The notes under the pieces: model-generated
What the model saw: only the letters and a program-made list of their open reading frames with translations
Told to the model about the DNA's origin: nothing
The model's database searches: none
Position numbers and translations under genes: made by a program
Origin: Candidatus Doudnabacteria bacterium
GTDB lineage: Bacteria > Patescibacteriota > Doudnabacteria > UBA920 > O2-02-FULL-48-8
Assembly: GCA_023246005.1 (NCBI GenBank)
Contig: JAHFJG010000007.1
Span: 7,312 to 71,311, forward strand
Length of the DNA: 64,000 nucleotides
Direction of reading: 5' to 3'
Shown here: positions 7,066 to 24,701 of the stretch, one piece after another
Position numbering within the stretch: the first letter of the stretch is position 1
Layout: each line of letters opens with the position of its first letter

Positions 7066-7174
7066 GATCAACGCTTCGTTGTCGATCGGAGGTGCGTTGT
7101 GGGACACGCTCGCCCACCACCCCAAACATTGCTTCTGTCCACCCGACTATTAACGCACATCGTGGAGACAAGCA

Positions 7175-7399
7175 ATGGCAGACCAAACTTTCCCATTCGT
7201 GGTAAGAGTCAACGGAAATATCAGATTCGTTCAACCGCAGCCCTTCAAGGAAGGAGCCCAGGCCACAATCGAAGGCGCGATGCCTAACGGTCAATTCGTG
7301 CATGTAAGGGAGCACAACCGACCTTTACATATTGACCGGTTCGACTTAAACGACGAGCAGCTGGATCTCATCCGTAACAAGCACAAGAGAGACTCGTAG
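7175..7399 (+). CDS. small hypothetical protein (74 aa) in a GC-rich island
   Basis: SD GGAGA before the ATG. GC3-rich codon usage atypical for the rest of the window. Confidence 0.35.
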   Translation: MADQTFPFVVRVNGNIRFVQPQPFKEGAQATIEGAMPNGQFVHVREHNRPLHIDRFDLNDEQLDLIRNKHKRDS

Positions 7400-7590
7400 A
7401 TAAAGTTTAAAGGCCTGAAGAGCAGAAAAAGGGGTAAATGACAGTCAATTCTGTGCTTCAGACTTTTAAGCGTGTTACCTTAGCGGTGAGAGACAACCTG
7501 ACTCCCGATGACTGTCGGGAAGGCCAAACTCAACCCAAAAGGTGACAGCCAGGTGGCTCACTACCAGCGGGCCACCTGGTCTATTTTCCC

Positions 7591-7624
7591 GCCGAAACGG
7601 CTTCCGTTTCGGCTTTTTTATTTC
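7591..7624 (+). terminator. rho-independent terminator (GCCGAAACGG cttc CGTTTCGGC plus T-run)
   Basis: 9-bp stem plus TTTTTTATTT. Two GC hairpins precede it (7504-7519, 7549-7579). Confidence 0.6.
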
Positions 7625-7663
7625 GACGAAGTCGAAATACTCCGACCGCGGAGCGCGTCGGAG

Positions 7664-8692
7664 TTACTTAGTAATCGTATAAAACTTTTGATCAGATGTG
7701 TTTGTAAAATACAAAGTGTTGCCAATCATTAGCAGATTACTGGCGCGAATATTTGAATCCGGCTCGAAATAACTTTCTTGTTTGAAAGTCGTCAAATCTT
7801 CTTTCACGAACACATCTGCTTTGTTGTCTTTTTTTGGTACAACCGCATACAAATACCTTCCGTCCGGATCAAAGGCAACTTTGTCCAGGGTCGTATTCAG
7901 AGAAAGATCAGTCGCTTGATGATTAGTAAAGTCATAAACATACAACTTTGGATAGGCTGCAATCGAGCTTTGCGCAAATACAAACCGGCTGCTGTTTGGA
8001 AGCCAAGAAGCTGCGATATTTTTACCCTGTTCGACGACAGTGGTAATTTCTCCTGTATTTAAATTTGCCGAATAAATTTTATTCGTATCGCCCTGTAAAT
8101 TTGATCGGTACAGAAGCGCGGTTTTTCCATCAGATCCGGCTTTCACGATTAAATCCGGCCAAAACACATCTGCAATCTTCTGAAAACCGCTGCCATCAGC
8201 ATTGGCGATTGCTAATTGTTGGTGAACATTATCGCCTGACTGCCAAATATACGCCACGCGCCTGGAATCCGGCAACCAATCCAGACTTTTAATATTGGCG
8301 GGTAAATTGACATAAATTTTCGATATATTATTATAATAATTTTTAATTTCATTGGCGCCAAAACCAGTGATTGCGATAAAATCCGAACCAGTCTTGGGCC
8401 ACAACACGCGGGTTAATTTGCCGCTGGACAAAACCGGCAATGGAAATTCCGACAAGCCGGTACCGTCAAGATTTACTCGAAACAACCGTCCGTCTGAATT
8501 AAAATACCATATCGCAGAATTATCAAATGAAGCGATCGGCGAAATCGCCATCTCATCCAAAACTTTTTTTATTTGAGGAGCTGCGACAACCGGTTGTTTA
8601 TTTTGTTTTTTAACCGCAATGAATAATAACCCGCCAGTGCCGGCAAGGATTAAAATGCCCAATGAAATTATAATTATCAGTCGTTTATTCAT
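7664..8692 (-). CDS. membrane-anchored TolB-like beta-propeller protein (PD40/WD40-like repeats)
   Basis: N-terminal TM helix. Repeated FxPDG/WLPDS/WLPNS motifs (AFDPDGRYLY, WLPDSRRVAY, WLPNSSRFVF). Confidence 0.5.
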   Translation of the reverse strand: MNKRLIIIISLGILILAGTGGLLFIAVKKQNKQPVVAAPQIKKVLDEMAISPIASFDNSAIWYFNSDGRLFRVNLDGTGLSEFPLPVLSSGKLTRVLWPKTGSDFIAITGFGANEIKNYYNNISKIYVNLPANIKSLDWLPDSRRVAYIWQSGDNVHQQLAIANADGSGFQKIADVFWPDLIVKAGSDGKTALLYRSNLQGDTNKIYSANLNTGEITTVVEQGKNIAASWLPNSSRFVFAQSSIAAYPKLYVYDFTNHQATDLSLNTTLDKVAFDPDGRYLYAVVPKKDNKADVFVKEDLTTFKQESYFEPDSNIRASNLLMIGNTLYFTNTSDQKFYTITK

Positions 8693-8701
8693 AAATTAAA
8701 A

Positions 8702-9592
8702 TCAGCTTGGTGCCGGAGGATTCGGGTAAGGAGCACAGTAGCTGCCGTCAGCTGATATTTTGTTAAATTCAACGTGCACGTGTCCGCCTGAAGTTCTTTC
8801 TACGGGATGGTTATATTCATCTATGGTATCGCCTGGAGGCGGATTGAATCCTGCGCCTTTTGCAATCTGAACTAATTTGGCAATTTGCGGATTACTGCTC
8901 CAGGGCTGACTAGGAGGGGGGCGAATAGAAATATCTACTGCTTCACCAAAAGCGTGCCTGCTTGGAAAATCGCCGCTTCTAAACGCACTGGTTATCGTAA
9001 CCTGGACTCCTGCGCTTGCCGCTGCGCCAACAATTTGCTGAACCTTGCCCAGCATGCACTGTCTGACTCTCGGATCCGAAGTTTGCGAATCAACACTTAC
9101 TCCGCTTAGAGCCACTAAATCAGCAGGCTCCCAAGCAAACGATGCTCCTCCCCCACCACCACCGCTAGTGCCACCATTAAACGCCAGCTGCTTACAAACA
9201 TCAATAGGAAAAAATTTCGAGGCAGCTCTAGTCACTAACCCAGTCAATCCAGTCTGATTGCAGCCAACAATCATAATAACGATTACCAACAAAGCGCCGC
9301 CTAGCACAAGCACAATCGGCCCCCAAACAGGAAAAGAGGCTCCAAGAAACTCAAGCACGATTCCCGCTTTTTTATACCTTCCATACCACTTCTTGGTTTT
9401 CTTTGCTTTGTCAGCAGATCCTGCTTGTTTTTGTTTCTGAATTTCGGCCAGTCTTTGCTGTTGATTGTATTCTTCTATCTCCTGCTCTAAAATATACTGA
9501 TCGACTTCTTCTTGCGAGGGTTGTTGATCTTCTTCTTCCGCCTCTTGTTCCAATAATTCTTCATCAAGACTGTTAGGCATATATTTTCCCAT
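8702..9592 (-). CDS. membrane-anchored peptidoglycan hydrolase-like protein with M15/LAS (VanY-like) metallopeptidase fold; candidate T4SS-associated wall hydrolase
   Basis: Acidic N-terminal region, TM helix, Gly-rich linker. Then SAFRS...HAFGEAVDI...GGHVHVEF, matching the LAS/M15 pattern SxxRS, HxxGxAxD, HxH. Confidence 0.5.
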   Translation of the reverse strand: MGKYMPNSLDEELLEQEAEEEDQQPSQEEVDQYILEQEIEEYNQQQRLAEIQKQKQAGSADKAKKTKKWYGRYKKAGIVLEFLGASFPVWGPIVLVLGGALLVIVIMIVGCNQTGLTGLVTRAASKFFPIDVCKQLAFNGGTSGGGGGGASFAWEPADLVALSGVSVDSQTSDPRVRQCMLGKVQQIVGAAASAGVQVTITSAFRSGDFPSRHAFGEAVDISIRPPPSQPWSSNPQIAKLVQIAKGAGFNPPPGDTIDEYNHPVERTSGGHVHVEFNKISADGSYCAPYPNPPAPS

Positions 9593-9646
9593 CGCGAGCG
9601 ACCGCTTTTATTTCTAAGGTTTAGTTCTGGCGGTCGCGTGGCGATC

Positions 9647-9973
9647 TTAATCTAAGTCATCGTAGAGATCACACCATTGTGGATTCGTAGATTCAATAAG
9701 TTTTATCTTATCTGCTCTAGATCCGGCCTTAATCTGCTTTTCTCTTGCTAAAGATGAATCAAAGTCATTATGAGCTTCATAATAGACCAGTTTCGTCAGG
9801 TTGTATTTTTTTGTAAAGCCTTCGACTAGTTTTTGCTTATGGGACCAAACTCTTGCTTTTAGTTCTGAGGAATAGCCTGTATATAGAGTCGTATTCGTAA
9901 AGTTAGTCATAATATAAACACAAAACACCTTTTCGTCTTGGTTAAGATTGCTTCGTCCCCTTTGGTAGTTCAT
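9647..9973 (-). CDS. GIY-YIG nuclease family protein (stand-alone, about 108 aa)
   Basis: VFCVYIMTNFTNTTLYTGYSSELKARVWSHK matches the GIY-YIG core. Confidence 0.75.
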   Translation of the reverse strand: MNYQRGRSNLNQDEKVFCVYIMTNFTNTTLYTGYSSELKARVWSHKQKLVEGFTKKYNLTKLVYYEAHNDFDSSLAREKQIKAGSRADKIKLIESTNPQWCDLYDDLD

Positions 9974-9994
9974 AAGCTCCTCGCAATGGAGAAA

Positions 9995-11881
9995 CTAATT
10001 CTCTGAACTCCCCTGCGCCTGCATTTCTTTTTTGGCTTCTTCAATTTCCAACGCTCGCTTTGGATCGGTTGTGATGATCTGATCTTCCATGTATGAAGCA
10101 ATTATCTTGATGGCCACGTGCTTGATCCCAGCAAAGAAAATTCCTTCCCCCACGTCTGATTCCAACAGCAAATATTTCTCGCCTTCAGTCAAAAAGAAAG
10201 TCTCGACTATCACATCAATCGCGGCTGGTGATTGCTTAAGCAGGAGCTGCAAAGACGAGTTGGTCACAATCGGTTTGCCATATGGAGATTGCAAAAAATC
10301 CGAAACGTCTTGGGTGACGGTCGTGACTCCCAAATAATATTTGCGCGCCCGCTTGGCAATGCCAAATAGAAATTTGGCCGAATCATCATGCTGCATCATC
10401 CACCACGCTTCGTCAATCACCAAAATTCTTTTTTTCAAAGTTGAACGGACTACGTTCCAGATATAATTTAAAGTCACATAAATAGCTATTGGGCGCAGAG
10501 CGTCTTCCAGATCTCGGATCGAAAATACGACTAACTGGTTATCCAAATTAATATTCGTGGTCTGGTTGAAAATTCCAGAAAAAGTCCCTTGCGTATACTT
10601 GGTCAAGCGTTGCGCCATGCTTTCTCCGCCAACCATGCCGGTTAAAATTTCTACCAAATCCTGCATAGTCGGCGGTTCGATATTGGTAAAATCAGAATTG
10701 GCAGTAATGTCTTTTTTGGCATAAGTTTCCCAAATCGCCCGATCCATAATCGCTTCTTCAGTGGGATCCAGTTTCCCAAGCATTAAATTCATCAGCCCCA
10801 ACAAATTAACGACTGCGGAACGTAAAATATCCTCTTTGCTTTCGCCTTCAATGCCTCTTGGCAAATCAAACGGATTAACGCGGGAATCGGAGTTCAAAGA
10901 AATATTCAAAAACGAACCGCCTACAGCATTGGAAAGATGCCGATATTCGTTTTCCGGATCTATGACAATCACATCAGTTCCCAACATTAAGGATCGCAGA
11001 ATCTCCAGCTTGACCGCATAACTTTTGCCCGAGCCTGACTTTGCAAACACGACTGAATTGGCGTTTTCCATCTGAAACCGATCAAACAAAATTAAGCTGT
11101 TATTATGCCGATTAATGCCGTATAAAATTCCGTCATTGGAAGTCAGTTCCGAAGATACAAACGGAAAAGTCGTAGACAAAGGCTGGGTATTCATGTTTGT
11201 GGCAATCGCCAACTCGTCATTGCCTAAAGGCAAGGTCGAGTTGAATCCTTGTTCCATCTGCAATATCGCCGGCTTGGCCACGATTAACTTGGACCCAAGC
11301 AAGGACTCGAGAGTTGCTGAAAATTGATCCAGCTCCTTTAAGTCGTCAGCGTATAAAGTAAAGTAGATGGAAAAACGAAAATATCGCTCGGTTCCTTGCT
11401 GCAGCCTGTTGCGCAATTCTTCCACATCCTGGAAAGCCGTTTCCATCATCGGATCTCTGACATTGCCTTTTTCCTGGCCAAGCCGCATGCTGGCTTCCAG
11501 CTGGCCGACTTTGCTCTTAAGCTTTTTCATAATTTCATCCGTCGCCATGGGGTAAATAAACATGGCCATATCAATTGGCGCATCCAAACTGATGATCGGA
11601 GCTAACCAGTCGACCGAAATAAATCGCGGATAGGACATGATGAAAAAAGACCGCGCCAACCTGCCTGATACCTCGACGGAATTTTGATTGACTCGAAAAG
11701 CTGATGGCGCAATTAAATCCCGCAGAGTATTTAACCCGCTTTTATATTCGCGTTCTTTCTTAACTATCTCACGCTGTAACTCGCGCTGCGGATCAGGTTG
11801 ATTATCGGAAAATAATGCCATATTATTCGCGATCCGAATGACCCGAATTTGCATCCGAATTATCCGAATCATAGTTCGCAT
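9995..11881 (-). CDS. VirB4/TrbE/CagE-family conjugal-transfer (type IV secretion) ATPase
   Basis: Walker A FAKSGSGKSYA. Walker B VLVIDEAWWMM. C-terminal VirB4-like region. The true start is probably the internal MALFSDN at about 11821. Confidence 0.85.
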   Translation of the reverse strand: MRTMIRIIRMQIRVIRIANNMALFSDNQPDPQRELQREIVKKEREYKSGLNTLRDLIAPSAFRVNQNSVEVSGRLARSFFIMSYPRFISVDWLAPIISLDAPIDMAMFIYPMATDEIMKKLKSKVGQLEASMRLGQEKGNVRDPMMETAFQDVEELRNRLQQGTERYFRFSIYFTLYADDLKELDQFSATLESLLGSKLIVAKPAILQMEQGFNSTLPLGNDELAIATNMNTQPLSTTFPFVSSELTSNDGILYGINRHNNSLILFDRFQMENANSVVFAKSGSGKSYAVKLEILRSLMLGTDVIVIDPENEYRHLSNAVGGSFLNISLNSDSRVNPFDLPRGIEGESKEDILRSAVVNLLGLMNLMLGKLDPTEEAIMDRAIWETYAKKDITANSDFTNIEPPTMQDLVEILTGMVGGESMAQRLTKYTQGTFSGIFNQTTNINLDNQLVVFSIRDLEDALRPIAIYVTLNYIWNVVRSTLKKRILVIDEAWWMMQHDDSAKFLFGIAKRARKYYLGVTTVTQDVSDFLQSPYGKPIVTNSSLQLLLKQSPAAIDVIVETFFLTEGEKYLLLESDVGEGIFFAGIKHVAIKIIASYMEDQIITTDPKRALEIEEAKKEMQAQGSSEN

Positions 11882-12245
11882 TAAGGACTCTTTTTGGCTT
11901 CAAAAATGCTGCTCTAAAATTTACTATTAGTCCGAGTTCTAAATTAGCGGCTTTGAGGTATCTTTGCATTTGGATATAATCTTCTTTCGTTATGACCCGT
12001 TTAGCCTTAAAATCTGTTAAAATTCTGCCAAAAATCAGGAAATCTACTCTGTTGCCTTCAGGGGAATCGCTCTGTAAATTCTTAAGCTCGTATTCTCTTT
12101 CAAATGGAATTTTTAGTTTTTTAAGTTTTTCTTCAAATTTATCTGCATATTGTCTTTCTCTAGCAAATCTTCCCAGCTCGTTATGTGTCTCAAAACAAAC
12201 CCCTGTTATTTTATATGATTCATCTGCGTATAATATTCGTGGCAT
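11823..12245 (-). CDS. GxxExxY-family protein (PD-(D/E)XK nuclease-like fold)
   Basis: ITGVCFETHNELG...E motif and size typical of the GxxExxY family. Flanked by inverted repeats (see findings). Confidence 0.5.
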   Translation of the reverse strand: MPRILYADESYKITGVCFETHNELGRFARERQYADKFEEKLKKLKIPFEREYELKNLQSDSPEGNRVDFLIFGRILTDFKAKRVITKEDYIQMQRYLKAANLELGLIVNFRAAFLKPKRVLNANYDSDNSDANSGHSDRE

Positions 12246-12263
12246 TCGGATGTCATTCGTGGA

Positions 12264-12959
12264 TTAGGATCGCAATATGTCCAAATCTTCTACGGATTTA
12301 ATTCTAATTGCCGAGGCTGTGTTTAAATTATAACTATTATACATAAGTTCGATCAGCTCCTCTGTGCTTAAAACCAGGGTTTTCAAGCCCATGGCTGAAA
12401 GTCCCGACACAATCTGATTAACTCGTTTGGACAGCTCTTCGCGGGCGTTTTCAAACTCCAGGCTTTTGCCGGCAATCTGTTTGGCCGGACTAAATAAATT
12501 TGTAACCTTTGACATAAAACCAGATTTGACTCCTGCTGTAGTTAATGGAACAACTACATAAAATGTCTTGTTCATTATGCTGGCAAATTCGATAAGCTTG
12601 CCGATGTATTCGATATATTCTTGCGTCTGCATACGCAGCAATTCGTTGGTTTGTTGTTGCATAATACTCCGCAGCTTGTCCAAATAAGCATGAATGTCGA
12701 GCTTCCTTGATTGCATGAGAATTTGGATGGGAAATTCAAGACCATTGAGAAAATTCTGATAAGCTGAAATTAGAGCGTTTTGTTCTTCCACGCTCTTTAA
12801 GGAAAAATTCGTGGAAGAAACTACCATCACCGTTCGCATGGACCCGTCCCGCATAATAATCGTTCCTTCTTTTATTTCATCAATGTCCAAATAAGCCTGC
12901 GTGCTGGCAGTTGGTTTATTATTGCCTATATTCGATTGCATTTCTTGCTTAGTAGACAT
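12264..12959 (-). CDS. hypothetical protein, T4SS-locus associated
   Basis: Intact ORF co-directional with virB4. No recognisable motif. Confidence 0.3.
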   Translation of the reverse strand: MSTKQEMQSNIGNNKPTASTQAYLDIDEIKEGTIIMRDGSMRTVMVVSSTNFSLKSVEEQNALISAYQNFLNGLEFPIQILMQSRKLDIHAYLDKLRSIMQQQTNELLRMQTQEYIEYIGKLIEFASIMNKTFYVVVPLTTAGVKSGFMSKVTNLFSPAKQIAGKSLEFENAREELSKRVNQIVSGLSAMGLKTLVLSTEELIELMYNSYNLNTASAIRIKSVEDLDILRS

Positions 12960-12986
12960 AGATCAGATAACAGTGAACAGTTAACA

Positions 12987-13352
12987 TTAACTCGTTTTAG
13001 CGCTTGGGACTTTAATTGTCCAGAGCATTGCCCCGATTTCATCCGCTAACTTTGATGATTGCAAATAATCTTCTTCAGTCATATAATTTTCCTTATAGGC
13101 AAATTCAAGAAGATATTTTGATTCTTGAAGAGAACCATAAGAGATATCAAAAAAATTCTGCTGTACTTTATCCCGAATGCGCGCATATCCTTCGATAAAA
13201 TTTAAAATAACCGACAAAGCAGATCTCCTTAACTGAGAAGTAACACCGTATAATTCATCTCTCGGAAAGCTTTTCGTAATTTTATAAACCAAATGAACAT
13301 AAATATCCATCTTTGCTCTTAGTTTATCAAAATATGATTCAGTCTGATGCAT
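12987..13352 (-). CDS. four-helix-bundle protein (23S rRNA intervening-sequence protein family; HEPN clan)
   Basis: Family-typical size (about 120 aa) and motifs (TSQLRRSALSVILNFIEGY...ES.YLL). Flanked by TCAGATAACAG inverted repeats. Confidence 0.8.
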   Translation of the reverse strand: MHQTESYFDKLRAKMDIYVHLVYKITKSFPRDELYGVTSQLRRSALSVILNFIEGYARIRDKVQQNFFDISYGSLQESKYLLEFAYKENYMTEEDYLQSSKLADEIGAMLWTIKVPSAKTS

Positions 13353-13363
13353 TTTGTTATCTG

Positions 13364-13807
13364 TTATCTGATATCTGTTTTCTGACGTATCAGTTCTTTC
13401 TCTTCTTCTGTTTTCTGGTCAAGCAAATATGCTAACTTTTTCAGTCTGCTCTGATCCGGTTCCTCGATGCGCCCTATTTTTGCTGGAGCTGGTTTAGCTT
13501 TTTGGGTTCTAACAACAATATCAACTTCTTCGCGTTTAAAAATCCTAACCTGCGGCTTGGAAAAAAAGCTGACAAATGCCCCTAGGTAAGCAAACATAGG
13601 CCGGCCATTAAATTTCGCAAACCCCACGGCAACGCCGATCAAGGTTACTGGTAGAGCAAATAAGAAAAAGAACACTGAAAACTTCAATAATGAGTAAAAA
13701 AACAAATCAACTCCGCCAGTGGCCAATAAAAACAAAAACTGCTTGAGAGTCAGAGGACCGATTAGTTTATCCTCAATGTCAGTGAATTGCGGTACGGCAA
13801 ATTGCAT
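13364..13807 (-). CDS. PrgI-like small membrane protein (2 TM), putative T4SS component
   Basis: Two hydrophobic helices and a charged C-terminus, adjacent to virB4 and virB6-like genes. Call rests on size and context only. Confidence 0.35.
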   Translation of the reverse strand: MQFAVPQFTDIEDKLIGPLTLKQFLFLLATGGVDLFFYSLLKFSVFFFLFALPVTLIGVAVGFAKFNGRPMFAYLGAFVSFFSKPQVRIFKREEVDIVVRTQKAKPAPAKIGRIEEPDQSRLKKLAYLLDQKTEEEKELIRQKTDIR

Positions 13808-13842
13808 GTTGCAAAGTAAAAAGTTAAAGGTAAAAAATAAAA

Positions 13843-14256
13843 CTAATCGTTATTCTTAAGGGAAACTATGCTAGCGCCTAGTATTTTTGATAATTCTTCA
13901 GCTTCGAGCAACAATTCTTTTGCTTTGTTAGGTTCAGCTTTAGCTGAATCAATCATTAAATTAAGCCAAAATTTTGTTTCGTTCGCAGATTTTAGAGCAT
14001 ATAAGTAAAAATTGATAAAATCCTTTCTGCTGCTAGCAGCTATGGCTTCAATTATATTGGCACCAATGCTTGTTCCACAACGCAATAGCTGTCGAGCCAG
14101 AATCTGAACATTAAAGTCCTTTTTGTCTAAAGTATCAATAAATACTATAACTTCTAGGGCAAATTTATAGCTTCTCGATTTAATGTCTATTTTTATTTTA
14201 GAGTTAGTTTCAGACATTTGCAGTAACTTTTCCACAATAACTATAACATAAAACAA
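13843..14256 (-). CDS. four-helix-bundle protein (23S-IVS protein family); probable true start at ATG 14217
   Basis: SIGANIIEAIAASSRKDF...ALKSANETKFWL, a family-typical motif. The listed start is TTG. Confidence 0.75.
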   Translation of the reverse strand: MFYVIVIVEKLLQMSETNSKIKIDIKSRSYKFALEVIVFIDTLDKKDFNVQILARQLLRCGTSIGANIIEAIAASSRKDFINFYLYALKSANETKFWLNLMIDSAKAEPNKAKELLLEAEELSKILGASIVSLKNND

Positions 14257-14314
14257 TCAAATTACCAAAAAGCCAGGGCGGCTTCCCAGGCTTTTACTTT
14301 TGACTTTTTACCTT

Positions 14315-14755
14315 TTACTTCATGAAAGCTTTTATCCACTTCATCCAGCCCTCTCCTTCATCCTCGTAATTATTCCAAAATTCTTCCGGCCTGACTATTT
14401 TTGTGCCTTGGAATTTTTCAAGCTTAAGAAGATGTTGATCAGAAGTAATCAAATAATCAGCATTGCAAGTAACGGCTGATTCTAAAATTTTATTGTCCTC
14501 GTCATCCTCAACAACGTGCAAAGATTCGCCTGGGCCAATCTGGCTGACCATTTCAAAAAAATATTCCAGTTTTTTGAGATAACCTTCATCATTAATTTTC
14601 TTCTGGGCTAAGAATTTATTTTCTCGCAAAGTGCCTTTGTTGGCATAAGCCTCAACTTGTCTGGCAATAACTAAATCTATGATCCTGTTAGCATAACTGT
14701 GATCATCATTTGATGCGTCTATTAAAGCATTGGTGTCAATCACGACTTTGAGCAT
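14315..14755 (-). CDS. PIN-domain protein (VapC-like putative toxin); no adjacent canonical antitoxin ORF
   Basis: N-terminal VVIDTNALID plus conserved acidic residues downstream (ITSDQHLL). Confidence 0.7.
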   Translation of the reverse strand: MLKVVIDTNALIDASNDDHSYANRIIDLVIARQVEAYANKGTLRENKFLAQKKINDEGYLKKLEYFFEMVSQIGPGESLHVVEDDEDNKILESAVTCNADYLITSDQHLLKLEKFQGTKIVRPEEFWNNYEDEGEGWMKWIKAFMK

Positions 14756-14792
14756 AAAAAGGTTGTAGGTTATAGTTGGTAGGTTGTAGTTA
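14756..14792. repeat. left arm of a ~35-bp inverted repeat bracketing the 4HB gene 14790-15152
   Basis: AAAAAGGTTGTAGGTTATAGTTGGTAGGTTGTAGTTA. Reverse complement of 15226-15260 begins with the same 14 bp AAAAGGTTGTAGGT and shares GGTAGGTTGTAG. Confidence 0.6.
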
Positions 14793-15152
14793 GGACTTAT
14801 CTAATTCTTGGGTCATCTTATTAAGCATGCGCATTATTTCATCCAAAAGATCAACCACGATCAAACTTTTGGCATCATTCCCAAAACCAAGCTTTTTAGA
14901 AATTATCAACTGAGTTTCTAATTCTGCGCCGGATCCATAAGCTGTGAATAAAAAATGACGGTAATCTTTTTTAGTTCCACGCTTACTACCTTCAGCAATA
15001 TTTGACGGGATCGAAACCGCACATCTACGCATTTGGGAAGTCAAACCAAATTGTTCTTCTCGAGGAAAATCTTTTGTTAATCCATAGACTGCAACCACCA
15101 GGTCTAGGGATTTTTGCCAAACAATGAGATCCTTATAAGATGATAAACTCAT
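14790..15152 (-). CDS. four-helix-bundle protein (23S-IVS protein family)
   Basis: Classic motif KDLIVWQKSLDLVVAVYGLTKDFPREEQFGLTSQMRRCAVSIPSNIAEG. Confidence 0.85.
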   Translation of the reverse strand: MSLSSYKDLIVWQKSLDLVVAVYGLTKDFPREEQFGLTSQMRRCAVSIPSNIAEGSKRGTKKDYRHFLFTAYGSGAELETQLIISKKLGFGNDAKSLIVVDLLDEIMRMLNKMTQELDKS

Positions 15153-15225
15153 ATATTATTAATTAATAATACTGAAGTACTTTAGCATTATCCTGAATAA
15201 AAATAAACCCCATGAGGAGGTCTAT

Positions 15226-15260
15226 TCTACAACCTATAACCTACCACCTACAACCTTTTA
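15226..15260. repeat. right arm of the inverted repeat bracketing the 4HB gene 14790-15152
   Basis: TCTACAACCTATAACCTACCACCTACAACCTTTTA. It abuts the stop codon of the upstream gene. Confidence 0.6.
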
Positions 15261-16730
15261 TAGTCTTTCAATTTCCTTACGAAGGTCTGCGATTGCTTCA
15301 AATTCTTGCAGCGTCAAATCGCTGCCGGCTTTGTTCGCGGCATTTTTGAACACCACTGTTCTATCAGCATTATTATCATGAATCATGGCAGAGCCAATTT
15401 GCAGATAAATCTTAAACAATGGGCTTTGTTCAAAGGCATTAACGACATAATACGGCAACAGCCGGTTGGCTTGCGCCAGATAAATGATTCGAGATTGGAG
15501 ATTCGAGATTTGAGCTTGCAAAGTTCCCGCGCGCAGATAGCTTAAATCAACTTTTTTCAAATCATCAACGATTTGAATATCATTTAATGATTTCGAAGGA
15601 GTCAATTTGACTGAAGCGGGCCTGTAATAATTCTCCGGTGCGACTGAAGACGGCAGAAACTTTGTAGGTAAAGGAACGGGCTTTGAGATCCGCAATCCTG
15701 AATTCATTTCAGGATCTCTTTTTTGAGATACTGAAACCCCTGAACTTGATTCAGGGTCAGCATTGCGAGGCGGAGAAACCAATTCCGGAGTTTTCACTTC
15801 ACGCTTAATTTCTTCCGGCGTCATCTTCACAAGCGTTTGTTTGCTGCTATCTGATATCTGTTTACTGATCCCTGTTTCCCCCATTTGCCGCCGCAAAACT
15901 TCCAGGTCTTGGCCGTGAGAAGGAGTTGGTGGTCTGGGAGGAGTTCGTGGTCGTGGGGCAACTGGTATATTCTGATTTTTAACAACTTGCTGGAAATCTA
16001 CTGTTGCTTCTTCAAAGGCTGTTCCGTATTTGAGCCAATCATAAAGCTCTAGAATAATAAGCAACAACTTTCGATCGGTATTGGACAACTTCCGGACAGT
16101 TTGGTTCTGATTTATGTACGTAATCCTTTCTATAGCTCCTCTTGTTTCGAGTATAGGTCCTGCTTTTCTTGTGTTTCGATCATAATCCAATAACCAGTTG
16201 CCTATTGAGGGTGGGACATTTTTATCTGCTATTGTTAGGGGATTACTACCAACTGTAACAAAACTCCTAAGCATGATATTAGCCAATGACTCGGCAATCG
16301 CTCCTTCTTCTCTAACGTCATCATAAACATTTAAAACATCCTGAAACTTTTCTTGGATTGGTATTTTGGCCTTTATTGCATCTGTCAGATGGTTCTTGAT
16401 CAAATTTTCTATTTCTGCAAAGGGCCTTGAGGACAAACATTCAAATTTCAACAGGACTATCAATTTCTGATATTTTTCGTACAGCTCCGGGGACTCAGTT
16501 TTCAGTTCTGGGTATTTGCCAATCAATATGTCTTCCAAAAGCATCCGAGCTTTCAAGGCCTCTTCCCGGTTATCAAACTCAATGCTTCCTTCAACTATTT
16601 GCTTGAACTGCTCAAAAACCTCCGGATATGCTAACTGCTTTCTGTCCGTGATGAAAGACAATGGTGTTGTATTACCAACCACAGCGGAGTTAGATGTTGT
16701 GCTTTGCTGAATTAGAGTTTCGTCTGGCAT
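15258..16730 (-). CDS. hypothetical protein (490 aa, Pro-rich linker), T4SS-locus associated
   Basis: Intact ORF between the 4HB gene and the VirB6-like gene. PRPRTPPRPPTP linker. No recognisable catalytic motif. Confidence 0.3.
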   Translation of the reverse strand: MPDETLIQQSTTSNSAVVGNTTPLSFITDRKQLAYPEVFEQFKQIVEGSIEFDNREEALKARMLLEDILIGKYPELKTESPELYEKYQKLIVLLKFECLSSRPFAEIENLIKNHLTDAIKAKIPIQEKFQDVLNVYDDVREEGAIAESLANIMLRSFVTVGSNPLTIADKNVPPSIGNWLLDYDRNTRKAGPILETRGAIERITYINQNQTVRKLSNTDRKLLLIILELYDWLKYGTAFEEATVDFQQVVKNQNIPVAPRPRTPPRPPTPSHGQDLEVLRRQMGETGISKQISDSSKQTLVKMTPEEIKREVKTPELVSPPRNADPESSSGVSVSQKRDPEMNSGLRISKPVPLPTKFLPSSVAPENYYRPASVKLTPSKSLNDIQIVDDLKKVDLSYLRAGTLQAQISNLQSRIIYLAQANRLLPYYVVNAFEQSPLFKIYLQIGSAMIHDNNADRTVVFKNAANKAGSDLTLQEFEAIADLRKEIERL

Positions 16731-16736
16731 ATTTTT

Positions 16737-19640
16737 TTATTTTGCATGTATATAGGCTCGTTTCTCTTTTCCTGCGGAATCTTTTTCGTCAGGAATATAG
16801 CCAGAAGGCCTCCAGCTCATGTCTTCCGGTCTTGTGTCTGGAGCCGGCGCGCCAGACCCGCTAAAATGCTTGAATGCCGCATCTAATTTTGAATCTCCTG
16901 AAGCATCGGCTAATTTTGTTCTTCCAAAATCAATCAAGGCGCTCATAGTTTCTCTATACTCTTTCTGCACTTTAGGATCTTGAATCAAATTAGCCGCCTC
17001 AAATATACGTTTCACATTCTGCGGCTTAGCCGCATTCATGGCTTGGTTCGCATTCATTTCATTTCTATTCACCCGGTTTTTGATAGCCTGATAATTAGTC
17101 ATATAATAGGTCAAACCAACTTCGTTGATGATCGAATCTCTTTTACCGCTAACGCCATAATCAGCAGCAGGAACTTCGTCGTAGAATATCAAACGGTTAC
17201 CTTCTCTCGTCAGCTTGGAGTCGTCTAGTTTAGCGTTCTCAGCAGCCTGTTCATTTTTTCGATCCTGTGCACTCTTCATCTCCAGACGGCCGTGTTTCGA
17301 TTCGTACATACGCATAATCGTCCTGTGTCCGCGTTTCTCAGCCAGATCACTGACATCACTCATGATTAGCATAGAACCTTGTTCACCCATGCCTAACTTC
17401 TCTTCCAAAATTTGTTTTCTGAAATCATCCATGCCTTCTGCCGAATAAGTCATGAATTCTCCAGCTTTATGTTGCTTTCCGTCAGCACCGATCATGTCTC
17501 TAGTATATTGGGTTTTATTTACCAATTCGTTATCATTATACGTGTCTGTCAGGTGCATAAGAATTGCGTTTGCCCGAGCTTGTTTACCCTCTTCTACGGC
17601 GCTATTAAATAAATCCACTAACTCATGCCAGTTATCAGTAAGAATATTTTTCTTCTCCTCATCCATGGCATGCCGGATCTTTTTCTGGGTAAAGTAATCG
17701 TCTGGATACATCAATGATTGTCCCTTCAACTCTGTCGCCCTTGCTCGGGCGAGTATCTGTTCTCTTGACTCCGTACCAAATGCTTTTTCTGCTTCATCGG
17801 CTTGGTCCAAAAGAGCTTGGGCTTTGACGCGCTTATCGGTTATTGCCAGATCCTTAGCTGCTTTTCCGTTTACATCAATAGCTGGCAGGGCTGCCTTTTC
17901 TCTCTCCAATTGCCTTGCTTCTTCTAGAGCTTGTTGTGCTTGCTTACGCAACTCCAATGGTGCATTCGCCTTTGTTTTTAATTCTTCCGCATCATGTAAT
18001 AATTCTCTTCCAGTTTCCGATCCACCGCCACGAGCTTTTTTTATCCCGCCCTTACCAAAATACCGCTGAAAAAAAGTAACTGGCGAAGCAAGGGCAGAGC
18101 CTTTTTCATATGCTTTGGTCATTCCCGCAGTTTCTCTAGCCGCTCTATTAATCTCCCGGGATTCTTTCCAACCCTCAATCCATTTCGCAGGTCGAATTTC
18201 TCTGCCGGTTCTTGCCTTATAGACCTCCGCCCCATAATTGGCTCCAGCCTTGACTCCTGCCCAAGCCCCTTTCTTCATCAAATTCTTGGCTCCACTGACC
18301 CCGCTCATTATCATATCCCCCCCCACCATCCCCGCTTGCTTGGCCACCAATACCGCGGCTGCCAAAAATGCTATTTCAATAAAGTAAATAAATGCAGTGC
18401 CATTTCCTTGGCCATTCTTCCAACCTGTCCAACTAAATCCATCTGATATAACTAAAGTATCTAATCTAATCATAAACAAAGCCACTGGCGCCCAAATCAA
18501 ATATTTAAGAAAGTGACTCCACCATTCTTCTGCGTATTTTTTGGTCGCCGGCAGAATATTTGCCACATAAGCAATAGGTGAAAAAATAATCAAAATGTAC
18601 AAACCCACAAGCCGGATAATAAACATTCCAGCCAGAGCTATAAATACAACTGCAGATACAAGCTGATAAAAGATTTTTCCTAAACTTAAAACAAGAGCTG
18701 TTGATGATCCTCCTGTAACGATAAGTCTAAAATCTTCCGCAGGCCAAGCCTGAGCGAAAGCCGTAGAAGCAATCTGTTTTCCCATTCCATCTTGATAAAA
18801 CACCGCGGCCAAAAAATTCACGGCATTCATGATAGTAACTGCGATAACTTGACTAAAGTTAACTAAAAGAGCCGCTATTATTAAATCTCTGAGCAAGTGG
18901 CCATATTCTTGATAATTTTTCAATCGTAAAATTACACCAAAGCCAATGACTATTAATGCCAAAATAAAAAACATATTACAGATATCGCGGACGACCATCC
19001 AGCCAATATTAACCGCTCTTGGCAAAGTCGTAATATTGATTATATTCCCCACAACTTCGCTGAAAATACTACCGGCAATAGAAGTCACAATTGCCAATAC
19101 TGCTGAAATAATTGAAGCTACGAAATCTAAAATCCATCCAATCACTTGACTGATAACATTAGCGGGGTCTTGAAATTTTTTCATATCAGCTGCTGCTTCA
19201 GCTATTCCTGTTTGATTTATTCCAGTTCCATTGACTATTGACGCTCTAACTGCTTGCATCTCAATCGGTATTTTTGTAATATCTTGAGTTGATGAAATGC
19301 CATCTGATAGAACTGGCCAGCTACCTGGCGCAGTTTCACAATAAGGTTCAGGTATTCCGCCTGTAGCAATTAATCCCCAAACTGCTCTGTACTTTTTCTG
19401 AGAGGCCTGTAATAATTTATCGCTCAATGCTTTACAGCCTGCTTCATTGGTTGCATTATCATAATCAGCTTTAGTAATAGTTACATTTGTTGTTGGCGCT
19501 GGCGTGGGAGCCGGGGCTGGAGCTGGAGTTTGCCCAAACGCAAAATTGGCAAGCAGAAGATTGGCCAGTAGAATTGCTGTTAAAATTTTGGTTATGCGGT
19601 TGAATTTTTGTTTTGGTTTCACTTTTGGAAAATTAGTCAA
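16737..19640 (-). CDS. VirB6/TrbL-like polytopic membrane protein with long hydrophilic C-terminal region
   Basis: Signal peptide plus PAPAPAPTPAPTT linker, at least 6 TM helices in the central part, and a long charged coiled-coil C-terminus, next to virB4. No searches run. Confidence 0.45.
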   Translation of the reverse strand: MTNFPKVKPKQKFNRITKILTAILLANLLLANFAFGQTPAPAPAPTPAPTTNVTITKADYDNATNEAGCKALSDKLLQASQKKYRAVWGLIATGGIPEPYCETAPGSWPVLSDGISSTQDITKIPIEMQAVRASIVNGTGINQTGIAEAAADMKKFQDPANVISQVIGWILDFVASIISAVLAIVTSIAGSIFSEVVGNIINITTLPRAVNIGWMVVRDICNMFFILALIVIGFGVILRLKNYQEYGHLLRDLIIAALLVNFSQVIAVTIMNAVNFLAAVFYQDGMGKQIASTAFAQAWPAEDFRLIVTGGSSTALVLSLGKIFYQLVSAVVFIALAGMFIIRLVGLYILIIFSPIAYVANILPATKKYAEEWWSHFLKYLIWAPVALFMIRLDTLVISDGFSWTGWKNGQGNGTAFIYFIEIAFLAAAVLVAKQAGMVGGDMIMSGVSGAKNLMKKGAWAGVKAGANYGAEVYKARTGREIRPAKWIEGWKESREINRAARETAGMTKAYEKGSALASPVTFFQRYFGKGGIKKARGGGSETGRELLHDAEELKTKANAPLELRKQAQQALEEARQLEREKAALPAIDVNGKAAKDLAITDKRVKAQALLDQADEAEKAFGTESREQILARARATELKGQSLMYPDDYFTQKKIRHAMDEEKKNILTDNWHELVDLFNSAVEEGKQARANAILMHLTDTYNDNELVNKTQYTRDMIGADGKQHKAGEFMTYSAEGMDDFRKQILEEKLGMGEQGSMLIMSDVSDLAEKRGHRTIMRMYESKHGRLEMKSAQDRKNEQAAENAKLDDSKLTREGNRLIFYDEVPAADYGVSGKRDSIINEVGLTYYMTNYQAIKNRVNRNEMNANQAMNAAKPQNVKRIFEAANLIQDPKVQKEYRETMSALIDFGRTKLADASGDSKLDAAFKHFSGSGAPAPDTRPEDMSWRPSGYIPDEKDSAGKEKRAYIHAK

Positions 19641-19669
19641 AAGGTAAAGGGTTACGATGCCCGGGTCGT

Positions 19670-20080
19670 TTAGGGGTTACGATTAGGGTTCTTAAACTTA
19701 CTCCATGCAGAGCCTAGGTTATAGAGCTGCCGACCTGTTTTATCATATATATCGACTAGTTCGGTGACTAAGGCAGGATTTATATCATAAATATCACGAC
19801 ATTGTTCAAGACTTACTATTGTTTCATTGCATTCTGCCATCGCATCATCGATATATTTTTGAAAACCTAGTTTTTGATGTCTTTTAGCATAACCTTCCGC
19901 AATTAATCTCGGGGATGCTTTACAAGAACGTCTCAATTGATCCTTTAGATCATACTTTTCTTCTTGAGGAATCTTGGGCAGAATTTCTTTCATTACCCGC
20001 AGCATTGCAGCGTAACTATTCTGATATACTTCTAGGTCTCGAAAGCTTTTAATTGGTTTCTTGTTTTCATCGTTGTTCAT
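19670..20080 (-). CDS. four-helix-bundle protein (23S-IVS protein family; HEPN clan)
   Basis: FRDLEVYQNSYAAMLRV...LKDQLRRSCKASPRLIAEGY, family-typical. Flanked by repeated palindromic motif ACGATGCCCGGGTCGT. Confidence 0.75.
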   Translation of the reverse strand: MNNDENKKPIKSFRDLEVYQNSYAAMLRVMKEILPKIPQEEKYDLKDQLRRSCKASPRLIAEGYAKRHQKLGFQKYIDDAMAECNETIVSLEQCRDIYDINPALVTELVDIYDKTGRQLYNLGSAWSKFKNPNRNP

Positions 20081-20257
20081 GACGTTACCTTTGACCGCCT
20101 TACGATACGGGCCTCGTTGCCGCTTTGAATTCGTTAATGGTTTAATGGTTATGATGCCCGGGTCGTCTAAAGGTGACGTCGAGGGCCTAAAAAACCGTTA
20201 CCTCTCAACTCCTCACCATACGGGCCTCGTTACCTCTTAACGCTAACCGATTTATAC

Positions 20258-20584
20258 TTAAATAACTTGTCTCTGTCCATAAAAAACTATTAGATCTTTC
20301 ATGACATCCTCTTTGATATACGGACTAACAGAAGCTTCAGTCAATAGATCGACTTTACTGTTTAGTCGTTCTGACAATTTTCTTTGTAAAGCGACTAAAT
20401 CCAGTAAACTTTTTTGCTTCTGCTGAGCATATCTAATAAGCAAGTCGATATCGCTCTCTTCCTTGGCTTCACCGCGAGCATACGAGCCAAAAACACCCGC
20501 AAACTCAACGTCATTGCTTTGAAGTATCGGGATGACTTTAGTTTTTAATTCATCAATTGTGGTTTTCATGAGTTCATTATGCAA
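20258..20584 (-). CDS. nucleotidyltransferase (MNT/antitoxin-type minimal NTase)
   Basis: GVFGSYARGEAKEESDIDLLI (the GSxxRGx...DxD NTase motif). Likely ATG start at 20569; the listed start is TTG. Confidence 0.75.
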   Translation of the reverse strand: MHNELMKTTIDELKTKVIPILQSNDVEFAGVFGSYARGEAKEESDIDLLIRYAQQKQKSLLDLVALQRKLSERLNSKVDLLTEASVSPYIKEDVMKDLIVFYGQRQVI

Positions 20585-20587
20585 TTT

Positions 20588-20698
20588 TTAGGACTTTTTG
20601 TCTATTGGAACAAACGCAAAATTGGCAATCAAAAGATTGGCCAGCAGAATCAGGGCTATTATTTTAACTATTTTATTCTGGGAAATCAGGCTTGACAT
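20588..20698 (-). pseudogene. orphan 36-aa ORF encoding only a signal peptide, paralogous to the VirB6-like N-terminus (R5 repeat)
   Basis: MSSLISQNKIVKIIALILLANLLIANFAFVPIDKKS* against the VirB6-like N-terminus ...ITKILTAILLANLLLANFAFGQ. Nucleotide repeat AAACGCAAAATTGGCAA.CA.AAGATTGGCCAG.AGAAT. Confidence 0.5.
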
Positions 20699-20761
20699 GA
20701 TTCTATGAATATGATAAGATGTAAATAGTTTACAGAACTGGCCCGAAAGAGCCGGGTTTTT

Positions 20762-21298
20762 TTATTTAAAGCCAATGTCGCCCCTAGGTTTTTCTTCAAA
20801 TGCCAACAGCTTTTTGATGGCCTGGAATACGACTTTAAATTGCTGATCATATTTCTTTTCTAATTTTTCTATCTTTTCTCGCAACTCTCTATTTGTCGCC
20901 AACATTTCCCTTATCTTGGTAAACGTTCTCATTATCTGGATATTTACCTGTACTGCTCGTTTGCTGTGTAGAACGCTGGACAGCATAGCCACTCCATGTT
21001 CAGTAAACACCAAAGGCGCTTTGCGTAATCCCATCTTTTCGCGATTGGAAGTGCCAAATTGGAACTTCCAAATTTCCATTTCTTTTTTACTCATTTGAAA
21101 CATAAAGTCATCAGGAAACCTGTCTAGATTGCGCCTGACCGCGCGGTTAAGTATTTTGGTTTCTACTTGATAAAGTTCAGCTAGATCCTTGTCAATCATC
21201 ACTTTTTTGCCACGAATAAAATAAATTTTACTTTCTAATCTTTTTTCAGGTAAAACAATTTTATAATTTTCTTTATTCATATGTTTCCGCAAAAGCAA
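20762..21298 (-). CDS. ORF6N/KilA-N-like domain protein (phage antirepressor-type DNA-binding domain)
   Basis: FIRGKKVMIDKDLAELYQVETKILNRAVRRNLDRFPDDFMFQMS matches the ORF6N family. Probable ATG start at 21280. Confidence 0.65.
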   Translation of the reverse strand: MLLRKHMNKENYKIVLPEKRLESKIYFIRGKKVMIDKDLAELYQVETKILNRAVRRNLDRFPDDFMFQMSKKEMEIWKFQFGTSNREKMGLRKAPLVFTEHGVAMLSSVLHSKRAVQVNIQIMRTFTKIREMLATNRELREKIEKLEKKYDQQFKVVFQAIKKLLAFEEKPRGDIGFK

Positions 21299-21377
21299 AA
21301 TTAGTCAGGAAAAGATTGGCCGGCAGAATCAGGGCGAGGAGTTTAGTTATGTGATTGTGTTTTTGTTTTGGTGTCAT
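21275..21377 (-). pseudogene. second orphan signal-peptide mini-ORF (R5 repeat copy), 34 aa
   Basis: MTPKQKHNHITKLLALILPANLFLTNFAFAETYE*. Third copy of the 5'-end module. Confidence 0.5.
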
Positions 21378-24680: not shown

Positions 24681-24701
24681 AGTAAATCAATTTTAAACCA
24701 G

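Follow-up and report, generated by a model that had tools for sequence, protein, structure and literature searches.

A probable Patescibacteria-clade type IV secretion system in a Candidatus Doudnabacteria chromosome, with small polymorphic genes inserted between its cistrons

Does a run of secretion-like genes in a Candidatus Doudnabacteria bacterium represent a conjugation module or a resident machine of the cell, and what are the small genes scattered through it? The question is raised by a stretch of 64,000 nucleotides (assembly GCA_023246005.1, contig JAHFJG010000007.1, positions 7,312 to 71,311; hereafter the window), in which a reading of the sequence alone had described a type IV secretion system (T4SS)-like module at 8702-19640 with small selfish genes embedded in it. 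All open reading frames (ORFs) listed by this sequence-only reading are present on the minus strand at the positions it assigned, and nearly all of its assignments were confirmed by profile search. Its limits for the module proved too narrow. Synteny in relatives placed the conserved T4SS cluster at 7664-24267, an unbroken minus-strand run of ORFs that additionally takes in a beta-propeller gene (to 7664) and two membrane-protein genes (to 24267). We consider it likely that this cluster is an intact, chromosomal and vertically inherited T4SS of the Patescibacteria clade, descended from the MPF_FATA conjugation machinery of monoderms and with a role in host interaction, which later received selfish inserts resembling intervening sequences (IVS). 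The conserved genes are as follows (AF2, AlphaFold2).

7664-8692, minus strand: membrane-anchored TolB-like beta-propeller protein, last conserved gene of the cluster (TIGR02800 TolB propeller, 2.8e-12, partial)
8702-9592, minus strand: membrane-anchored LAS/M15-like zinc peptidase (weak VanY/M15 match, 8e-4, below cut-off; LAS signature)
9995-11821, minus strand: VirB4 ATPase, MPF_FATA type (conju_CD1110, PDB entry 4ag5, Walker motifs)
12264-12959, minus strand: TrsD-like protein, a separately encoded homologue of the VirB4 N-terminal part (NCBIfam VirB4_plasma; precomputed Pfam PF26593 TraC-like on homologues)
13364-13807, minus strand: PrgI/VirB3-like small membrane protein (Pfam PrgI, 4.7e-8, 33.9 bits against a cut-off of 27)
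14315-14755, minus strand: PIN_3-domain protein (Pfam PIN_3, 5e-16)
15258-16730, minus strand: hyp490, cluster-specific cytoplasmic protein of 490 aa (37 homologues, AF2 model)
16737-19640, minus strand: extended VirB6/TrbL-like polytopic membrane protein (TrbL in orthologues, synteny)
21576-23339, minus strand: hyp587, conserved bitopic membrane protein (64 homologues, AF2, synteny)
23242-24267, minus strand: hyp341, first conserved gene of the cluster, bitopic membrane protein (same position in 14 loci)

For comparison, 35 related loci (L001 to L035) were collected, two by exact-protein look-up and 33 as one genome per species, and the window proteins were mapped onto their ORFs with phmmer. 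The analysis revealed the common order ksgA - hyp341 - hyp587 - VirB6-like - hyp490 - (PIN) - PrgI - TrsD - VirB4 - peptidase - propeller - recG, which the close relatives keep as far as each contig extends. Hyp341, hyp587 and the peptidase were not detected by phmmer in the more distant loci L024 to L035. The core ORFs are full-length and as long as those of the relatives, and the cluster is flanked in the 35 loci by the same housekeeping genes, recG on one side and ksgA-uvrD on the other. Its GC content (0.37 to 0.44) equals that of the surroundings. The remainder of the window is ordinary chromosome, with recG, tRNAs, a sigma factor, ksgA, uvrD/pcrA, ileS, recO, argS, smpB, tmRNA, infC, map, dinB and asnS/aspS-type genes, and the nearest homologues are labelled Candidatus Doudnabacteria or Patescibacteria group. 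The comparative synteny proposed by the sequence-only reading thus recovered intact syntenic core genes in relatives and no decayed integrative and conjugative element (ICE) with frameshifted genes. The shared order and the full-length core ORFs therefore indicate a chromosomal, vertically inherited cluster and not a decaying ICE.

An ICE or plasmid remnant, that is, a degraded MPF_FATA conjugation system in which the small genes are accessory or decay products, could be argued from the best VirB4 match, which is the Firmicutes conjugative-element family conju_CD1110, and from the mobile-element-type genes (ORF6N, nucleotidyltransferase, GIY-YIG) inside the cluster. The chance that this is the case appears close to negligible: order and flanks recur in 35 loci of different species-level genomes, the core ORFs are intact at the relatives' lengths, GC content is not distinct from that of the flanks, and no integrase, relaxase or type IV coupling protein (T4CP) was found among the ORFs of the window. 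The ORF6N and nucleotidyltransferase genes are absent from the relatives and are therefore secondary insertions.

The ORF of the VirB4 ATPase (9995-11881, 628 aa) matched NCBIfam conju_CD1110 with 361.5 bits against a cut-off of 325, over profile positions 182-733 of 752. It also matched the Pfam TraG P-loop family (6e-25) and the VirB4 C-terminal domain in the Protein Data Bank (PDB entry 4ag5; 6.7e-44), so that the VirB4 assignment of the sequence-only reading holds on profile search. Both NTP-binding motifs are intact (Walker A, GSGKS; Walker B, VIDEAW). The true start is the ATG at 11821 (MALFSDNQ); the 20 codons upstream of it in the ORF come from the repeat arm of an inserted cassette, described below.

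The adjacent gene at 12264-12959 had been regarded as a candidate new T4SS subunit, a proposal that has to be given up. Its 231-aa product maps to positions 97-233 of the NCBIfam model VirB4_plasma (3.6e-9), of which the 628-aa VirB4 covers positions 283-893. Homologues carry Pfam PF26593 (TraC-like) and the JGI name VirB4 component. The match to the NCBIfam TrsD model (E = 0.0067) is far under its cut-off, and PDB sequence searches with the protein and with its profile gave chance matches alone. The gene encodes the known TrsD-like protein (PMC12102498), which is remotely homologous to the N-terminal portion of VirB4, usually lies beside virB4, is essential in Southlakia and is the most abundant T4SS component in Patescibacteria (PMC12102498). 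A search retrieved 881 homologues, the top 120 of which are all 222 to 243 aa long with 65 to 81% identity. Exhaustive profile searching of the representative library yielded 3026 clusters, and in each of the best 150 the protein stands alone.

In L001 and L002, TrsD and VirB4 abut in the same frame as ...TAA ATG GCA TTA TTT, and spacers of 1, 2, 7, 9 and 10 nt separate them in other relatives. A single gene with an in-frame stop, expressed by read-through or recoding, was ruled out: gaps of 1, 2, 7 and 10 nt break the frame, cassettes of 442 to 454 nt occupy the junction, and TrsD stands alone across the 3026 clusters. Insertion of the GxxExxY gene as the cause of the split was also ruled out, since the split predates the insertion. 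The frame-breaking spacers and the whole cassettes at this junction therefore indicate two proteins made separately, and the split is ancient and the norm for the clade. Two loci depart from the usual arrangement. In L034, TrsD and VirB4 are about 5 kb apart, an exception to an otherwise fixed order, and in L028 the VirB4 ORF has 872 aa, about 260 aa more than elsewhere.

The PrgI gene lies just upstream of TrsD in 34 of the 35 related loci, either adjacent or with a cassette alone between them. The VirB6-like protein comprises a signal/transmembrane segment, a core with several transmembrane segments at about residues 160-460 and a hydrophilic C-terminal extension of about 500 aa. Pfam TrbL was matched by 14 of 22 orthologues (best, 2.6e-9), and the L001 orthologue carries a precomputed PF19590 (TrbL_3) annotation; through these orthologues the proposed VirB6 assignment stands, the window protein itself scoring below the cut-off. 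In the peptidase, residues H213, D220 and H273 are invariant within the signature SxHxxGEAxD...GGHxHVEF in 18 orthologues, six of which reach M15 Pfam families, all below cut-off. The protein is not a VirB1-family lytic transglycosylase, and it is a likely cell-wall-opening enzyme analogous to VirB1. The propeller gene that closes the cluster is syntenic in about 30 loci.

The VirB4, PrgI and VirB6 profiles support the view, already taken by the sequence-only reading, that the genes form a Gram-positive-type (MPF_FATA-like) T4SS core of candidate phyla radiation (CPR)/Patescibacteria. That reading had also seen no relaxase or coupling protein, and profile scans bore this out: no relaxase and no VirD4/TraG coupling protein was found in any sizeable ORF of the 64-kb window and no oriT in the window, nor was a relaxase, oriT or T4CP found in the ±10-kb flanks of the relatives, judged by their recorded Pfam content. 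A Patescibacteria T4SS clade in which TrsD lies next to virB4, a relaxase is near-universally absent and the T4CP is distant has been described by Quinonero-Coronel et al. in 2025 (PMC12102498). This clade holds 2,425 of 2,474 patescibacterial VirB4 proteins, and its T4SS was found in 2,417 of 3,035 genomes; VirB8 is mostly undetectable in Patescibacteria (PMC12102498) and thus no strict requirement for the clade. From this proportion and the Doudnabacteria taxonomy, we infer that the window VirB4 belongs to the monophyletic Patescibacteria VirB4 clade. The window cluster shares with these systems the MPF_FATA ancestry of VirB4, a TrsD-like gene that directly precedes virB4, nearby PrgI/VirB3-like and VirB6-like genes, a peptidase directly downstream of virB4, a chromosomal site, and the lack of a relaxase and of a nearby T4CP. 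It differs in that no VirB2-like pilin array was seen and the wall enzyme is of the LAS/M15 type, in the additional hyp341, hyp587, hyp490, PIN and TolB-like propeller genes, and in an operon unusually loaded with cassettes. The T4SS is therefore one well-resolved Doudnabacteria example of a system catalogued in about 2,400 Patescibacteria genomes.

Two conjugation systems were also compared. The pGO1/pSK41-type systems (TrsD plus TrsE/VirB4; a subclass of MPF_FATA) likewise have a separate N-terminal VirB4-like TrsD beside a shorter VirB4 and no outer-membrane core components, but they are plasmid conjugation systems with a relaxase, a T4CP and an oriT. The Prg/Pcf system of pCF10 (PrgH, VirB6-like; PrgI, VirB3-like; PrgJ, VirB4; PrgK, hydrolase; PrgL, VirB8-like) has the same order of VirB6, VirB3, VirB4 and wall hydrolase, and the window PrgI protein passes the Pfam PrgI cut-off. 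In contrast to pCF10, no PrgL/VirB8-like fold was found, the models of hyp490 and hyp587 being without a PDB match, the hydrolase belongs to a different enzyme family, and the window system has no adhesin, T4CP or relaxase.

With no relaxase or coupling protein in the window and with housekeeping genes on both flanks, the cluster is therefore not a conjugation module. Its most likely role is that of a machine for host interaction, by analogy with proposals for the Saccharibacteria system, which is essential. VirB4, acting with TrsD and held in place through PrgI, would drive a membrane channel built on VirB6, the peptidase would open the cell wall ahead of this channel, and protein or other macromolecules would move between the ultra-small cell and its host. 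Work by Wang and colleagues in 2023 is said to have found the T4SS essential in Southlakia epibionticum, and in a Saccharibacterium the system is needed for growth as an epibiont. Two further papers give the T4SS as essential in Southlakia and state its role as unknown (PMC11665869, PMC12857230).

A device for the uptake of DNA or nucleotides (ComB-like or Ced-like), which would import host nucleic acids instead of exporting effectors, was also weighed. Patescibacteria cannot make nucleotides, the possibility of uptake has been raised for the Saccharibacteria T4SS (PMC11665869), no T4CP or relaxase lies nearby, and VirB4 weakly matches the archaeal DNA-import ATPase CedB (2.7e-10). This match is far weaker than that to conjugative VirB4, however, and a DNA-binding or ComEC-like partner is missing from the cluster. 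The sequence gives no indication of the direction of transport, and we regard an uptake device as rather improbable.

Several observations weigh against the interpretation of the cluster as a host-interaction T4SS. The window VirB6-like protein matches Pfam TrbL with 4.7e-3 and 17.2 bits, below the cut-off of 25.9, and the M15 assignment of the window peptidase, likewise below the Pfam cut-off, rests on orthologues, synteny and motifs. A VirB8-like (NTF2-fold) protein was not found in the cluster, the hyp490 and hyp587 models having no PDB match, and neither was a VirB2-like pilin gene or array. Outside these 64 kb, the genome could still encode a VirD4. The proposed host-interaction role is extrapolated from transposon-sequencing literature on Saccharibacteria and not from Doudnabacteria.

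Four of the conserved genes, those for hyp490, hyp587, hyp341 and the PIN protein, are lineage-specific. The sequence-only reading had named 15258-16730 as a candidate T4SS subunit to be sought among VirB8/VirB3/TraM-like folds; its standing as a conserved cluster member was confirmed, and the model and Foldseek showed no such fold. The 37 homologues of its product, hyp490, are all hypothetical proteins of the same lineage with no Pfam domain, and hyp490 has no transmembrane segment. Its AlphaFold model, built on a 34-sequence alignment, has a mean predicted local distance difference test score (pLDDT) of 77.5 and contains two all-alpha domains (about residues 30-235 and 380-490) with pLDDT above 90. 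They are joined by a disordered Pro-rich linker bearing the conserved motifs HGxDLExL and EIKREVxTPELP. A Foldseek search of the model against the PDB gave no fold match (best E = 0.6, generic helical repeats alone), and a PDB sequence search with the hyp490 profile gave chance matches alone.

In the distant relatives L024 to L033, the two hyp490 domains are encoded by two adjacent genes, a gene for the N-terminal helical domain followed by one for the Pro-rich linker and the C-terminal FEQSPLY...EEFEF domain, the latter lying between the N-domain gene and PrgI (for example L025, 8477-9277). This arrangement supports hyp490 as a two-module protein conserved with the cluster; the window form may be either a fusion of the two-part module or its ancestral form. 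The hyp490 and VirB6-like genes are 6 nt apart, and we regard hyp490, a cytoplasmic protein specific to the cluster, as a putative partner of the extended VirB6. A 7-nt tandem repeat (GATTCGA, 4.1 copies) in the same format as the cassette arms described below lies at 15486-15514, within the sequence coding for hyp490; it may be a coincidence or the trace of a repeat-arm sequence.

The extracytoplasmic part of hyp587 is large; the protein also contains an Asp-rich DxDxDG stretch and a C-terminal domain with Cys. Its 64 homologues are all hypothetical and of Doudnabacteria type, and the gene is syntenic in relatives. The AF2 model (mean pLDDT 70; C-terminal domain about 90) gave no match in the PDB (best E = 1.7). 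Hyp341 has a transmembrane segment at about residues 55-75 of the long ORF and a TSP3-like Ca-binding motif; its likely true start is M29 at 24183, and its profile matches, to TSP3_bac and Amuc_1099, are all weak. Together with hyp490, the PIN protein, the LAS peptidase and the TolB-like propeller, hyp587 and hyp341 are candidates to take on the missing functions of VirB8, of an adhesin or of substrate recruitment.

The PIN gene had been counted among the embedded selfish genes, as a toxin. This was not borne out: it has no inverted-repeat flanks, unlike the cassettes, and its divergence follows that of TrsD. The gene occupies the slot between hyp490 and PrgI in 18 of 36 loci. Its mean identity (57.6%) is close to that of PrgI (55.1%), and over these 18 loci the pairwise PIN identities follow the TrsD identities (Spearman 0.77, p = 3e-31) no less closely than the identities of the core protein PrgI do. 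The acidic residues of the domain are conserved (IDTN, E, ED.ED, TSD) and, by position, are candidate catalytic residues. A toxin of a toxin-antitoxin (TA) pair, or another selfish insert, would be suggested by the PIN_3 family, which is dominated by TA toxins, by the loss or replacement of the gene in five close loci and its absence from the distant group, and by its slot, which is also a favoured cassette site. We consider this unlikely: no antitoxin-sized ORF neighbours the gene, its flanks are free of inverted repeats, and its position is the same in all 18 loci, with the divergence given above. By these comparisons the PIN gene behaves as a resident, vertically co-inherited cluster gene of one subclade and not as a cassette. 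The same slot can hold cargo larger than the small cassettes, as in L019, where an alanine racemase-like gene and a 196-aa gene lie between hyp490 and PrgI (7338-9110).

What, then, are the remaining small genes? The window has the heaviest insert load among the loci, with six cassette genes, four of them encoding four-helix-bundle (4HB) proteins, one a GxxExxY protein and one a GIY-YIG protein, in addition to an ORF6N gene and an orphan nucleotidyltransferase gene. They are listed here with their terminal inverted repeats (arms).

9647-9973, minus strand: cassette gene for a GIY-YIG nuclease-domain protein, located between the peptidase and VirB4 genes (Pfam GIY-YIG, 1.9e-12)
11822-12263, minus strand: GxxExxY (PD-(D/E)XK) cassette, gene 11823-12245 (Pfam PDDEXK_3, 2e-20; TIGR04256, 5.6e-20); arms 11832-11848 / 12235-12251, 17 nt, 88% complementary, CCGAAT/ATTCGG repeats
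12962-13372, minus strand: 4HB_a cassette, gene 12987-13352 (Pfam 23S_rRNA_IVP, 1.9e-26); arms 12962-12979 / 13355-13372, 18 nt, 89% complementary, 7-nt units of CAGATAA type
13814-14320, minus strand: 4HB_b cassette, gene 13843-14256 (Pfam 23S_rRNA_IVP, 1.8e-21); arms 13814-13842 / 14292-14320, 29 nt, 83% complementary, 7-nt units AAAGTAA / TTTTACT
14757-15259, minus strand: 4HB_c cassette, gene 14790-15152, occupying the whole interval between hyp490 stop and PIN ATG (Pfam 23S_rRNA_IVP, 1.2e-37); arms 14757-14789 / 15227-15259, 33 nt, 85% complementary, some 4.3 copies of a 7-nt unit in each
19670-20080, minus strand: 4HB_d cassette gene (Pfam 23S_rRNA_IVP, 6e-18)
20258-20584, minus strand: orphan MNT-type nucleotidyltransferase gene with no adjacent HepT, in an insertion of about 1.9 kb between hyp587 and the VirB6-like gene (Pfam Polbeta, 1.5e-16)
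20762-21298, minus strand: ORF6N-domain gene, in the same insertion (Pfam ORF6N, 1.1e-32)

All four 4HB genes that the sequence-only reading had seen interleaved in the module are real by their 23S_rRNA_IVP matches; the fourth (19670-20080) lies just outside the end assigned to the module. Comparison with the relatives revealed that cassette type, number and position differ between genomes and that the cassettes sit exactly at stop-start junctions. In the window, the 442-nt GxxExxY cassette lies exactly between the TrsD TAA and the VirB4 ATG, the point at which L006 carries a 454-nt 4HB cassette. L006 has further 4HB genes at ksgA-hyp341 and PIN-PrgI, and L016 has a GxxExxY gene at PrgI-TrsD. 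At the VirB4-peptidase junction the one cassette seen in relatives is a 4HB gene in L022; GIY-YIG was not detected there in any related locus, and GIY-YIG genes occupy hyp490-PIN or hyp490-PrgI in L004 and L022. L001 has no cassette and in many other loci none was detected, and all of these keep an intact cluster. The four window 4HB paralogues are only 28 to 37% identical and are therefore independent, old acquisitions. The cassette arrangement was reproduced in an independent assembly. This presence/absence polymorphism supports the claim of small selfish genes embedded in the module for 4HB, GxxExxY and GIY-YIG, and it indicates that these genes are later insertions, present as polymorphic cassettes. 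The comparison thereby sorts truly conserved neighbours of the T4SS from passenger genes.

The distribution of the cassettes could also be read as that of functional T4SS accessories, be they regulators, immunity factors or secreted effectors. The cluster makes up 26% of the 64-kb window and contains all four of its 4HB genes and its sole GxxExxY gene; in the relatives, about 19 cassettes belong to the cluster or its borders and one to the flanks. Cassettes recur in the cluster of many relatives, and the approximately 26 cassette genes in or at the edges of clusters are all co-oriented with the operon. Such a function is nevertheless very unlikely. Cassette-free loci such as L001 keep the cluster intact, the complement of cassettes varies from genome to genome, and the 4HB paralogues have diverged as described. 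Moreover, insertions in the rRNA genes of CPR bacteria contain members of these gene families (PMC11270868), and hairpin versions without an ORF exist.

The cassette ends have an architecture in common. Terminal inverted repeats flank four of the six window cassettes, and in these the arms start at the preceding core gene's stop codon and end a few bases short of the next ATG. Tandem Repeats Finder resolved the arms of 4HB_a, 4HB_b and 4HB_c into 4.1 to 4.3 copies of a cassette-specific 7-nt unit and the GxxExxY arm into about four 9-nt units (period 9). Flank-to-flank inverted repeats were scored by a wide ungapped search, an earlier RNA-duplex test of the flanks having missed the 4HB_c arm more than 70 nt upstream. 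Across all loci, the best score had a median of 12 for 25 cassettes and of 7.5 for 52 control genes (PIN and PrgI; Mann-Whitney p = 1e-8). Whole-cassette RNA folds of 4HB_c and 4HB_b close on the arms in both the minimum-free-energy and the centroid structure. The fold z-score was -6.1 for 4HB_c and -1.2 for 4HB_b, for which 15 of 100 shuffles were as stable, and was thus significant for 4HB_c alone.

Arm motif and gene type go together across genomes and junctions. The motif ATCCGAATGC.C.GAA goes with GxxExxY in the window and in L016, and GGTAACGARGCCCGTATCG forms the arms of one 4HB type, that of 4HB_d, in L018 and L022 and also occurs beside 4HB_d in the window. Hairpins without an ORF, with inverted arms of tandem repeats, were found at the TrsD-VirB4 junction in L007 (95 nt, 10691-10785) and L015 (144 nt, 10712-10855). 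The arms of the L015 hairpin are of the CCGAAT type, like those of the window GxxExxY cassette at the same junction. These hairpins may be cassette scars or derivatives akin to miniature inverted-repeat transposable elements (MITEs).

A mechanism can be outlined from these features. Selfish IVS-like cassettes would ride on transcription of the operon, and the closing stem would let a cassette be excised from, or tolerated in, the polycistronic transcript, so that the flanking cistrons stay functional because the stem either insulates the insert or is cut away from the mRNA. The arms might be bound by the cassette's own protein or serve as RNase III substrates, and the ORF-less hairpins at the same junctions would be decayed or MITE-like derivatives. 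As a tentative proposal, which we hold possible but somewhat less probable than its opposite, the 4HB, GxxExxY and some GIY-YIG genes form a distinct class of miniature mobile cassettes, of the same kind as the ORF-bearing IVS of rRNA, that colonizes the stop-start junctions of a presumably essential mRNA operon.

In CPR bacteria, non-intron insertions in rRNA genes are reported to contain 23S_rRNA_IVP as well as GIY-YIG ORFs (PMC11270868). The window cassettes and the rRNA IVS have these ORF families in common, together with complementary flanks able to form a long stem, a sporadic, polymorphic distribution and versions without an ORF. The feature that defines the rRNA type, a 23S_rRNA_IVP ORF within stem-forming flanks, is found in three of the four window 4HB cassettes (arms 18 to 33 nt, 83 to 89%). 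However, the window cassettes sit between protein-coding cistrons, whereas IVS sit in an rRNA helix and are excised by RNase III, and the window arms consist of tandem 7-nt or 9-nt units, unlike those of rRNA IVS.

A second likeness is offered by the free-standing homing endonuclease genes seg and mob, which lie between conserved genes of T4-like phages. They are likewise small, polymorphic genes of nuclease fold (GIY-YIG; here also PD-(D/E)XK) placed precisely between conserved genes. They are not known to have inverted-repeat arms, unlike the window cassettes, most of which encode a non-nuclease 4HB protein, and the GIY-YIG proteins here are about 100 aa long with no separate DNA-binding domain detected by Pfam.

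Two points count against the proposed cassette class. The GIY-YIG gene (9647-9973) and 4HB_d, two of the six window cassettes, showed no clear terminal repeats on inverted-repeat search, and the cassette repeats could act at the level of DNA rather than RNA. A literature search within one library returned papers on rRNA insertions and on diversity-generating retroelements (DGR)/Avd alone and no account of such cassettes between protein-coding cistrons or of heptamer-repeat arms, which is no proof of novelty. The cassette architecture is the sole possibly new element, the T4SS itself being of an already known kind. If the cassettes and the rRNA intervening sequences are indeed the same, IVS-type elements would be general intergenic parasites of compact genomes, and the T4SS operon would supply natural filled, empty and scar alleles for studying cassette movement and operon tolerance.

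Related small genes also occur outside the cluster. A second small GIY-YIG gene (44482-44733, plus strand) lies some 160 nt past the tmRNA gene (43937-44319), with no convincing terminal inverted repeat around it. The ORF6N gene was not detected at the hyp587-VirB6 junction in any of the 35 related loci. An MNT nucleotidyltransferase/HepT (HEPN RNase) TA pair is encoded at 56450-57056 on the plus strand, about 20 nt downstream of tRNA-Asn; its MNT paralogue (56450-56758) has a HepT partner, unlike the copy at 20258-20584.

Consensus scans yielded two candidate expression signals, the first of which carries no indication of function.

24690-24718, minus strand: candidate sigma-70-like promoter, best match upstream of the cluster (TTGACA-17-TAAAAT, 11 of 12 consensus matches)
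7591-7613, no strand assigned: GC-rich hairpin, predicted as a possible terminator, about 50 nt past the last gene

The hairpin falls within a spacer of about 850 nt between recG and the last cluster gene (6815-7663), which has no convincing ORF and a slightly raised GC content. Short patches alone of this spacer are conserved in L003, L005 and L009, and Rfam gave no match either in the spacer or in the cluster.

Two further genes of the window have unusual domain compositions. The isoleucyl-tRNA synthetase (31602-35057, minus strand, 1151 aa) contains an unusual insertion, a histidine-phosphatase domain (His_Phos_1, residues 521-683) inside the class I catalytic domain. The gene at 39650-43537 on the minus strand lies where the window is richest in GC (0.545 against about 0.41) and may have been acquired horizontally; it encodes a secreted-type protein of 1295 aa that combines SH3 and GH114 glycoside-hydrolase domains.

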